Source: Escherichia coli (GTDB taxonomy: Bacteria > Pseudomonadota > Gammaproteobacteria > Enterobacterales > Enterobacteriaceae). From it: 64,000 bases of DNA. A program made the position numbers. This document shows positions 12,001 to 15,000 of this stretch, in pieces (positions within the stretch are counted from its first letter, which is position 1; each line of letters starts with the position of its first letter). Where the stretch lies: the NCBI RefSeq assembly GCF_009931435.1, contig NZ_CP043414.1; one strand, given 5' to 3'.

Positions 12001-15000
12001 TACTGGCTCACACGGTCCTTCCGATTTGTCACCAGTCTGCATGGCTGCGGCGCTGCACTTTGATCTGTGGGTCCCCAATTTCGGTGTCCAGGAATACATG
12101 GGCTATTCCGAACAAATGCTCGAAGTCTTCCCGCACAACTGGACTTTCGATAACGGCTATATGCATCCGGGAGACAAACCGGGTCTTGGCATCGAATTCG
12201 ATGAAAAGCTGGCGGCGAAATATCCCTATGAACCTGCTTATCTGCCAGTCGCACGTCTGGAAGATGGCACGCTGTGGAACTGGTAAGGAGTAAGATAATG
12301 AAAAGCATTTTAATTGAAAAACCGAATCAACTGGCAATTATCGAACGCGAAATACCCACCCCGTCAGCGGGTGAAGTTCGAGTAAAAGTGAAACTTGCCG
12401 GAATTTGTGGTTCAGATAGCCATATTTATCGTGGGCATAATCCTTTTGCGAAATATCCGCGCGTCATTGGACATGAATTCTTTGGCGTCATTGATGCAGT
12501 GGGTGAAGGCGTGGAAAGCGACAGAGTCGGTGAACGCGTTGCTGTCGATCCGGTGGTCAGCTGTGGGCATTGCTATCCGTGCTCTATAGGTAAGCCGAAC
12601 GTTTGTACGACACTGGCTGTATTAGGTGTGCACGCTGACGGTGGTTTCAGTGAATATGCCGTGGTGCCGGCAAAAAATGCGTGGAAAATTCCTGAAGCAG
12701 TGGCCGATCAATATGCGGTGATGATCGAACCTTTTACCATTGCGGCTAACGTTACCGGTCATGGTCAACCGACTGAAAATGATACCGTTCTGGTTTACGG
12801 TGCAGGTCCAATCGGCCTGACGATCGTTCAGGTATTAAAAGGCGTCTATAACGTTAAGAATGTGATTGTTGCCGATCGCATTGATGAACGACTGGAAAAA
12901 GCGAAAGAGAGCGGGGCAGACTGGGCGATTAATAACAGCCAGACACCGCTTGGCGAGATTTTCGCTGAAAAAGGCATAAAGCCGACATTAATTATCGATG
13001 CGGCTTGTCATCCTTCAATCCTGAAAGAAGCCGTAACGCTGGCTTCTCCAGCGGCACGTATTGTATTGATGGGCTTCTCCAGTGAACCGTCTGAAGTGAT
13101 TCAGCAAGGAATTACCGGAAAAGAACTCTCTATTTTCTCTTCACGCTTAAATGCAAATAAATTCCCGGTCGTTATCGACTGGTTAAGTAAAGGGTTAATT
13201 AAACCAGAAAAACTAATTACCCATACGTTTGATTTCCAGCATGTTGCTGATGCCATTAGTTTATTTGAACAGGATCAAAAGCATTGCTGCAAAGTCTTAC
13301 TCACTTTTTCTGAATAATACCAATAACGGCGAGTAAGTAGTACGCATCTTACCTCTTTTTTAGAGATAACCATTATGACAATAGAAAAACACGAAAGAAG
13401 CACTAAGGATTTGGTGAAAGCAGCAGTATCGGGATGGCTGGGCACTGCGCTTGAATTTATGGATTTCAAGAGTCATACGTGTCAACTATTTGATAAATAT
13501 TAAATTAATTTTTCATTGCTTCGTTATGGGGCATGGTTGGGGCAAACTCGCTTAACTGTGTATTTAACAAAGCTACCTGTGCATTATTGTTTTCAGACAT
13601 CCATTTTCCGTATACCTGAAATACCATTTGCGCATCTGCATGGCCCATCTGGTTTGCTATAAATGCTGGGTTAGCACCAGCTGTCAGCGACCAGCAGGCA
13701 TAAGTATGTCTCGACTGATATGATTTTCGATGGCGGAGTCCGGCACGTTTTATCGCTGCGTCCCACATCTGCCTTATTGAGTCAACGGTAAAATGGTCAC
13801 CATAATTTTTTACTCTCGCTGACACTTCAGGTTGAAAAACAAAGGTGCATTTATGTTTTTCTGTTCTGCCATACTCTCTGAGGTGAACATCAATGATATG
13901 CTCTTTGCTCAGTCTCGTTAATGTCATCTGACTCCGGAGAGCGTCGATTGCTGGCTTAATAAGATGAATGACCCGATTGGTTCCCGCCTGTGTTTTTGGT
14001 ACCGTGAAACGGTCTTTTGCTAAATTTCTCCTGATCATCATTGTTCCATTTTTCAGATCTATGTCCTCCCATCCAAGTGCACACAGCTCACCAGGGCGAA
14101 CGCCAGTATAAACAGAAACACACCATAAATTTTTGGCTTGCTGATTTCTGCACGCATCGATAAGACGGATGAATTCCTCCCGCGAAAGAGGATCCGGAAT
14201 GGTTCTTGATTCCTTTAATGGCGAGATCCCCTTAAACGGGTTATCTGCCAGGTAACCGTTATCAACACCAAACTGGAACACGGCGTTAAGATTTGTCATG
14301 TAATTATTTACAGTTACAGCCGATCTCCCTGGTTGTGTAACAATATAGTTACTTTTGGGGATCTGGTATCCAGTCAGTAGCTCTTTACGAACCTCCAGTA
14401 ATTTTTCTTTATTAATCGATGAGGCAAGATTTTTTTCACCGATTATGCTCAGGATATTTTTGATGACGGCACGGTATGTGTTGAGTGATGTTTTTGCGAC
14501 TTCAGTTTCTTTCAGTGCCAGAAATTTTTCAGCCAGTTCTTTTATGGTTAAATCTTGTCGGGCCTCACCAAATTTTTCCAGATTGCGTGAGGAGGGAAAC
14601 TGTTTTGCATAGTCGAAAACACCAGTTTTTATTGCGTAACAAACAGAGGCGCGTAGCTCACCTGCAACGCGCCTGTTTTTTGCTGTGTCAGGAACCCCCA
14701 GGTTTTCCCTGACTCTTACGCCTTTATAAACAAACCAGATACGTAATTTCCCTCCATGGTTTTCCACGCCTGTCGGATATTTCATTTCAACTTCTCTCAT
14801 TAGTTAGTGTGGCTTTTAGTCAAGTAAGATGACGTCTTGGTCTTGCTGATGCCTGGCGCTCAATCCAGCGATCAATTTCTTCCAGGTTGTAAAAGCATGG
14901 ACTGTTATCCCATGGCATACCGTCATGAGCGACATGCTTATATTCCCTTCCTTCCATAAACGATTTTTCCCGGGCCTTTTTTAACGTACCTTTTTTTATT

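Follow-up and report, generated by a model that had tools for sequence, protein, structure and literature searches.

Gene Order at the Junction

The left-hand part of the window, i.e., of the whole 64,000-nucleotide stretch of Escherichia coli DNA analyzed here, carries the genes speG, ynfB, ynfA, rspA (11039-12286) and rspB (12274-13317), which are followed in the ORF map by an open reading frame of 42 codons. This frame ends with a TAA codon at 13501-13503 and is separated by the single base 13504 from the stop codon (TAA, minus strand, 13505-13507) of a gene that is annotated in near-identical genomes as tyrosine-type recombinase/integrase. The integrase gene and the neighboring excisionase gene both reside on the minus strand and are oriented towards the junction. 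All features are compiled in Table 1.

An original prediction, made from the sequence alone, had placed a prophage junction inside ydfJ at this position, with a short ORF featuring an MFS-transporter-like N-terminus fused to the 3' end of the integrase gene and ending 2 bp before the integrase stop codon. The ORF is present and starts as ydfJ does, and the proposed junction is borne out by flanks that match ydfJ on one side and the attP region of free phages on the other. The adjacency of the two stop codons was seen correctly, give or take one base in the count, the spacer being one base long. The ydfJ fragment does adjoin the 3' end of the integrase gene; the term "fused", however, is imprecise, since the two ORFs run towards each other and the final 11 codons of the shorter one are phage DNA.

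Table 1. Features of the left prophage boundary, the prophage and the embedded island (positions refer to the window).
Feature	Position	Strand	Remarks
Chimeric ORF, ydfJ' plus P'-arm tail KSHTCQLFDKY	13375-13503	+	42 codons, ATG start, sequence MTIEKHERSTKDLVKAAVSGWLGTALEFMDFKSHTCQLFDKY
ydfJ 5' fragment, codons 1-31, bacterial side of attL	13375-13467	+	DG341-1 ydfJ (L001 3176-3268)
Imperfect att of 18-19 bp around TTATGGATTTC	about 13452/13453-13470		six-sequence alignment
att common core, 11-bp block of perfect identity, TTATGGATTTC	13457-13467		alignments of attL, attB, attR and attP
Lambdoid prophage body	13468-64000		early region Qin-like, late region resembling mEp460/cdtI/Tritos; continues beyond the window end
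Phage P' arm, core to integrase stop	13468-13504		identical to mEp460_ev081 attP in the alignment
Candidate integrase arm-type site CAACTATTTGA	13483-13493	+	motif CAACTATyTGA; proposed from motif count
Tyrosine integrase, intact	13505-14800	-	431 aa from first ATG; Pfam
Excisionase	14820-15071	-	Pfam DUF1233, putative excisionase, 1.6e-31; "excisionase family protein" in L002 and L004
Exonuclease	15144-17615		order attL, int, xis, exo
DicF sRNA	18259-18310	-	Rfam; typical of Qin-type prophages
sok antitoxin RNA (hokD locus)	23941-24115	+	Rfam; typical of Qin-type prophages
cspA-type thermoregulator leader	27593-27985	+	Rfam; cspB/cspI regions, Qin-type prophages
cspA-type thermoregulator leader	30496-30881	+	Rfam; cspB/cspI regions, Qin-type prophages
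GpA-type terminase, ATPase half	33879-34871		
Island splitting prophage terL	34869-45561		10,693 bp; flanking repeats 34859-34868 and 45562-45571
P4-type integrase (island)	35033-36271	+	
AlpA/excisionase-like ORF, Bro-N protein, RepA-like AAA_25 helicase, SSB (island)		+	
527-aa protein (island)		+	PHROG matches to transcriptional-repressor families in the C-terminal ~55 residues; no Pfam match
Copy of positions 1-204 of the cdtI record (island)	42111-42314		88% identical; possible cos region
ClpP-protease/capsid fusion (island)	42672-44588	+	
Second DUF1441 gene (island)		+	
GpA-type terminase, nuclease half	45569-46681		

The Truncated ydfJ Gene

The prophage-free strain DG341-1 (locus L001), in which PGAP labels the intact gene "MHS family MFS transporter YdfJ", served as reference. 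The first 31 codons of the window ORF agree with this gene in 93 of 93 nucleotides and 31 of 31 amino acids (MTIEK...EFMDF), which disposes of the possibility that the ORF is unlike ydfJ. After codon 31, the window ORF continues with the 11 residues given in Table 1 and a stop codon, as opposed to QLYSLGAALVFH in YdfJ; these last 11 codons and the stop are P'-arm DNA of the phage and not part of ydfJ. Since a flank of 3,271 bp (window 10200-13470 vs. L001 1-3271) aligns at 99.0% identity and homology then ends abruptly, with the rest of the window lacking any match to L001, the resemblance of the short ORF to ydfJ is not a matter of chance. Zero Pfam families were returned for the 42-aa ORF, as is expected of a transporter fragment of 31 residues. 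The ydfJ gene is inactivated in this genome: it is split, and its 5' end now encodes a chimera of 42 amino acids.

Position of the att Core

The attL site was defined by alignment of the window element with the uninterrupted ydfJ gene, with attP of the free phages mEp460_ev081 and Tritos (L007) and with attR of E. coli K-12 MG1655 (L005) and strain TD225-C4 (L004), both of which harbor shorter Qin derivatives with the integrase module found in the window. The sequences read CTTGAATTTATGGATTTCAAGAGTCAT for attL in the window, CTTGAATTTATGGATTTCCAGTTATAT for attB in intact ydfJ, CCTGTGAATTATGGATTTCAAGAGTCAT for attP of the free phages and CCTGTGAATTATGGATTTCCAGTTATAT for attR of K-12 and TD225-C4. 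The block TTATGGATTTC is common to attL, attB, both attR sites and attP of mEp460_ev081, while Tritos attP differs by one base. Its left limit is set by a one-base difference in a run of T (an indel, GAATTT vs. GAATT) and its right limit by a C/A mismatch, after which AG is again common. Around this block, attP in the six-sequence alignment equals the left side of attR joined to the right side of attL. Homology to the free phages starts at 13452 and extends rightward, the 1400 bp that begin at 13468 being 99.1% identical to Tritos. Identity to intact ydfJ reaches 13467, and matches due to chance continue as far as 13470. The left boundary of the prophage is thereby fixed at 13457-13467, inside ydfJ codons 28-31 and 38 bp upstream of the integrase stop codon. 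The ATG of YdfJ Met29 falls within the core, and the truncated ydfJ of K-12 (427 aa, MDFQLY) is annotated from this very methionine. Scans with Rfam and for tRNA genes revealed nothing at the junction, and the att site is therefore not of the tRNA or tmRNA type.

In the core of Tritos attP (L007 1505-1515) a G-to-C change is found, giving TTATGCATTTC where mEp460_ev081, attB, attL and attR have TTATGGATTTC; an effect of this mismatch with attB on integration at ydfJ would be expected. A further sequence, ACCTGTGCATTAT at 13575-13587 within the 3' end of the integrase gene, matches the left core boundary of attP, ACCTGTGAATTAT, in 12 of 13 positions, which may be due to chance.

In one respect the original prediction went astray, as it expected the att core within the last about 40 bp of the junction. 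A crossover at 13470-13510, where the short ORF ends and the integrase stop codon follows, would indeed be anticipated a priori if all 42 codons belonged to ydfJ, given stop codons that lie one base apart, and it was because the whole ORF had been taken as ydfJ, of which it contains only 31 codons, that the core was misplaced. The stretch 13468-13510 consists entirely of P' arm, being 99% identical to attP of Tritos and mEp460_ev081 and different from intact ydfJ, whose identity has ended at 13467, and neither attB nor attR has any sequence in common with 13470-13510. A core in this interval is refuted by the attL/attB/attP/attR alignment, which puts it about 40 bp further upstream, and we accord such a placement only a trace of probability. 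The notion that ydfJ was cut by an event that is not site-specific, such as a deletion, an IS rearrangement or homologous recombination between prophages, and that the adjacency of the integrase gene is secondary, can draw on the mosaic nature of ydfJ prophages, which are described as recombining with other prophages and causing inversions (PMC8112680), and on the window prophage itself, in which a Qin-like early region is combined with an mEp460-like late region. It has to contend with a break point that about 2700 genomes share down to the single base and with the ORF map, in which the junction is free of IS elements. Truncation of ydfJ by an IS element or a deletion is ruled out by the coincidence of the break point with the attP core of free phages possessing the same integrase, and the probability of any event of this non-specific kind is virtually nil.

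The interval is almost certainly the attL site (B-O-P') of a lambdoid prophage with an integrase of the Qin/PPydfJ/mEp460-Tritos type that resides in ydfJ. The alignments directly show the break point, the block of identity and the agreement of either flank with attB or attP. According to the best-supported mechanism, standard tyrosine-integrase recombination, the phage enzyme recombined attP with attB in ydfJ codons 27-32, with strand exchange taking place inside the common TTATGGATTTC at presumed cleavage positions. The rspB side has kept the ydfJ translation start and 31 codons and reads on into the P' arm for 11 codons up to the first in-frame stop, resulting in the chimeric ORF. An excised circle would carry the attP joint GTGAATTATGGATTTCAAGAG, and the repaired attB would be GAATTTATGGATTTCCAG. 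At the far end of the prophage, attR would consist of a Tritos-type P arm (...GGGAAAAAACACCTGTGAATTATGGATTTC) followed by CAGTTATATTCGCTCGGC... and the remaining part of ydfJ.

Tritos attP contains three copies of the motif CAACTATyTGA, located -291 (inverted), -64 and +26 from the start of the core; two of them fall in the P arm, and the third, which corresponds to window 13483-13493, falls in the P' arm. By our own estimate, chance alone would yield ~0.08 copies of the 7-mer on the two strands of a 661-bp sequence. Judged from these counts, the motif is a candidate arm-type binding site of the integrase.

Occurrence of the Junction and Comparison with Known Prophages

When window positions 13200-13700 were compared with 5426 complete E. 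coli genomes by megablast, the rspB-ydfJ'-int junction was recovered as a match over the full query, annotated as rspB plus tyrosine recombinase, in 2694 of them (49.6%). In genomes with intact ydfJ, where rspB is accompanied by "MHS family MFS transporter YdfJ", the match ends at query positions 268-271, corresponding to window 13467-13470. In the literature, Qin is described to integrate site-specifically at the 5' end of ydfJ, to remove 28 N-terminal codons together with the promoter and to occur in 48% of strains (PMC6379469). The same junction is annotated in K-12 MG1655, comprising ynfP (b4534) and intQ within "cryptic prophage Qin" (1632277-1652745). For the PPydfJ prophages, attP was determined by PCR sequencing, and an att of 18-19 bp was derived from an alignment of attP, attL, attR and attB, as stated in the legend of S7 Fig in Nakamura et al. 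(2021; PMC8112680). The block (T)GAATT(T)ATGGATTTCnAG of the window agrees with that att in length and location, and it is from these two properties that base identity with the site mentioned in the legend is deduced (PMC8112680). The junction is thus an ordinary attL of the Qin/PPydfJ type that has already been documented and whose biology is established.

Compared with the attL site of Qin in K-12 (ynfP b4534, intQ b1579, ydfJ b1543), the window features the same insertion site, the same rspA-rspB flank, the same core TTATGGATTTC and a near-identical P' arm. Differences concern the integrase gene, which in K-12 is a pseudogene adjoining an IS2 remnant and in the window is intact (431/426 aa), so that the integrase-excisionase module is complete here, unlike in K-12. 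They also concern prophage length, with more than 50 kb including a full late region in the window vs. 20.5 kb for Qin. The PPydfJ prophages of STEC and EPEC strains, e.g., O26:H11 strain 11368, are likewise described as lambda-like, located in ydfJ and equipped with T3SS effector loci (PMC8112680). Among free phages, mEp460_ev081, Tritos, HannyBb and PhiR42_1 share int and xis with the window at 99% identity and late genes at 97-99%; they are unintegrated genomes in which attP appears as contiguous P-core-P', and they are devoid of the 10.7-kb satellite that interrupts terL in the window.

The ydfJ site is a known hot spot for lambdoid prophages including effector-carrying and Stx-related ones. 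Because it is occupied in about half of the genomes and constitutes such a hot spot, precise att coordinates are of help in delimiting prophages; beyond correct annotation, the importance of the finding is small. In the records of Stx2a-converting phages LC727844-LC727872, the terminal integrase is 90-93% identical to that of the window and the record ends correspond to window position 13455, which suggests, as far as sequence comparison goes, that the core employed by related Stx2a phages is identical or very similar.

The Short ORF as an Allele of ynfP

The 42-codon ORF is an allele of YnfP and not a new gene. The K-12 protein (MTIEK...EFMDFKSHAC, 36 aa) has the same start and frame and is identical in 34 of the 35 residues compared, residue 35 being threonine in the window and alanine in K-12. 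A single CAA/TAA difference in the P' arm (13477-13482) accounts for the different lengths: CAA, which is present in the window, in strain FDAARGOS_497 and in the free phages, adds six codons, such that the ORF comprises 42 aa in the window and in FDAARGOS_497, as compared to 36 aa in K-12 and TD225-C4, where TAA is found.

It is conceivable that the ORF represents a functional small-protein gene or that its transcription, converging with that of int, modulates integrase expression in the lysogen. Table 1 of PMC6001520 includes K-12 YnfP, with its 36 residues, in a list of small proteins whose detection relied on epitope tags placed in the chromosome, and a simple scan revealed no terminator-like site between the ORF and int. 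The detection of the tagged protein implies that the ydfJ translation signals are still active at attL, and its bearing ends there, as detection does not demonstrate function. Moreover, the YnfP-type tail varies in length, as outlined above, the 42-aa ORF has neither a PGAP annotation in near-identical genomes nor a Pfam family, and the same simple scan of 13200-13800 found no promoter. We consider a functional role of this kind quite unlikely. The empty promoter and terminator scan in itself neither supports nor argues against a separate promoter of ydfJ' or a terminator of int. With no terminator seen and stop codons one nucleotide apart, read-through from rspAB would run antisense into int. 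That the ydfJ' start region at attL has been co-opted, either through such read-through antisense to the 3' end of int or through a functional chimeric YnfP of 36-42 aa, strikes us as highly improbable; if true, read-through from the starvation-regulated rspAB operon would couple Int levels, and hence excision, to the nutritional state of the host.

The Integrase and the Prophage Body

PGAP homologues of the integrase start at the second methionine, leading to a protein of 426 aa and a gene end at 14785. Both the Arm-DNA-bind_2 (5.7e-24) and the Phage_integrase (3.9e-18) families of Pfam are found above the gathering cut-off, and residues 151-399 align with the integrase of Tn1549 (6emy) over a region that takes in the G-x-R, RHT and GH motifs as well as the C-terminal tyrosine region, a catalytic match read at the level of motifs. 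With an arm-binding N-terminal and a catalytic C-terminal domain, the protein belongs to the heterobivalent tyrosine integrases that resemble lambda Int.

In phage lambda, attL (BOP') consists of a core flanked by the P' arm next to the convergent int gene, which is followed by xis and exo. The window prophage resembles lambda in this arrangement as well as in the heterobivalent type of its integrase. In contrast to lambda, the integrase belongs to the Arm-DNA-bind_2 subfamily, the core differs in sequence and length, and a mere 38 bp separate the core from the end of int, so that P' arm and int 3' end overlap. Another difference from lambda is that the target lies inside a coding gene that is not repaired by the phage.

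The left 20 kb of the prophage are 99.8% identical to Qin-type prophages with intact int, including that of TD225-C4, while the late region shares 97-98% identity with phages mEp460 and cdtI. According to the ORF map, the window ends among tail and tail-fiber genes. No repeat of the att region of at least 12 nt exists within the 64,000-nt window, alignment with L001 disclosed no 3' sequence of ydfJ anywhere in it, and the prophage runs past base 64000, which places attR outside the window. None of the complete genomes in the collection matches the whole element, the best matches to its right half amounting to 96-98% identity with gaps. By analogy with the maps of mEp460_ev081 and Tritos, attR of the window prophage would be expected about 4-5 kb beyond base 64000.

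A Satellite Within the Terminase Gene

While int and xis of the window prophage are intact, its terminase gene is interrupted by a satellite. The limits of the insertion follow from the record of phage cdtI, positions 1-1722 of which correspond to window 33147-34868 and positions 1713-5722 to window 45562-49571. The island is flanked by TTTCTGGATG and TTCCTGGATG, which have the core TTyCTGGATG in common, and the terminase gene is thereby separated into the ATPase and nuclease halves listed in Table 1. All named genes of the island lie on the plus strand, which is also the strand of the prophage late genes.

From its gene content and location, the island appears to be PICI-like and fits the class of helper-embedded PICIs established by Tommasini et al. 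(2023; PMC10111431). The gene A sites listed there lie in proteins of the Terminase_1 family, and the searched supplementary text of PMC10111431 contains neither a GpA-type site nor an att identity matching that of the island. The site in GpA may represent a site type of known kind that is absent from the sites listed in that source. A difference also exists in repeat motifs, since the helper-embedded PICIs are described with a doubled TGTATTGC motif (Tommasini et al., 2023; PMC10111431), in contrast to the island, which has TTATCGC-type repeats at 34973-34993 and 45467-45476. The left junction of the island is also present in 27 of the 5426 complete E. coli genomes.
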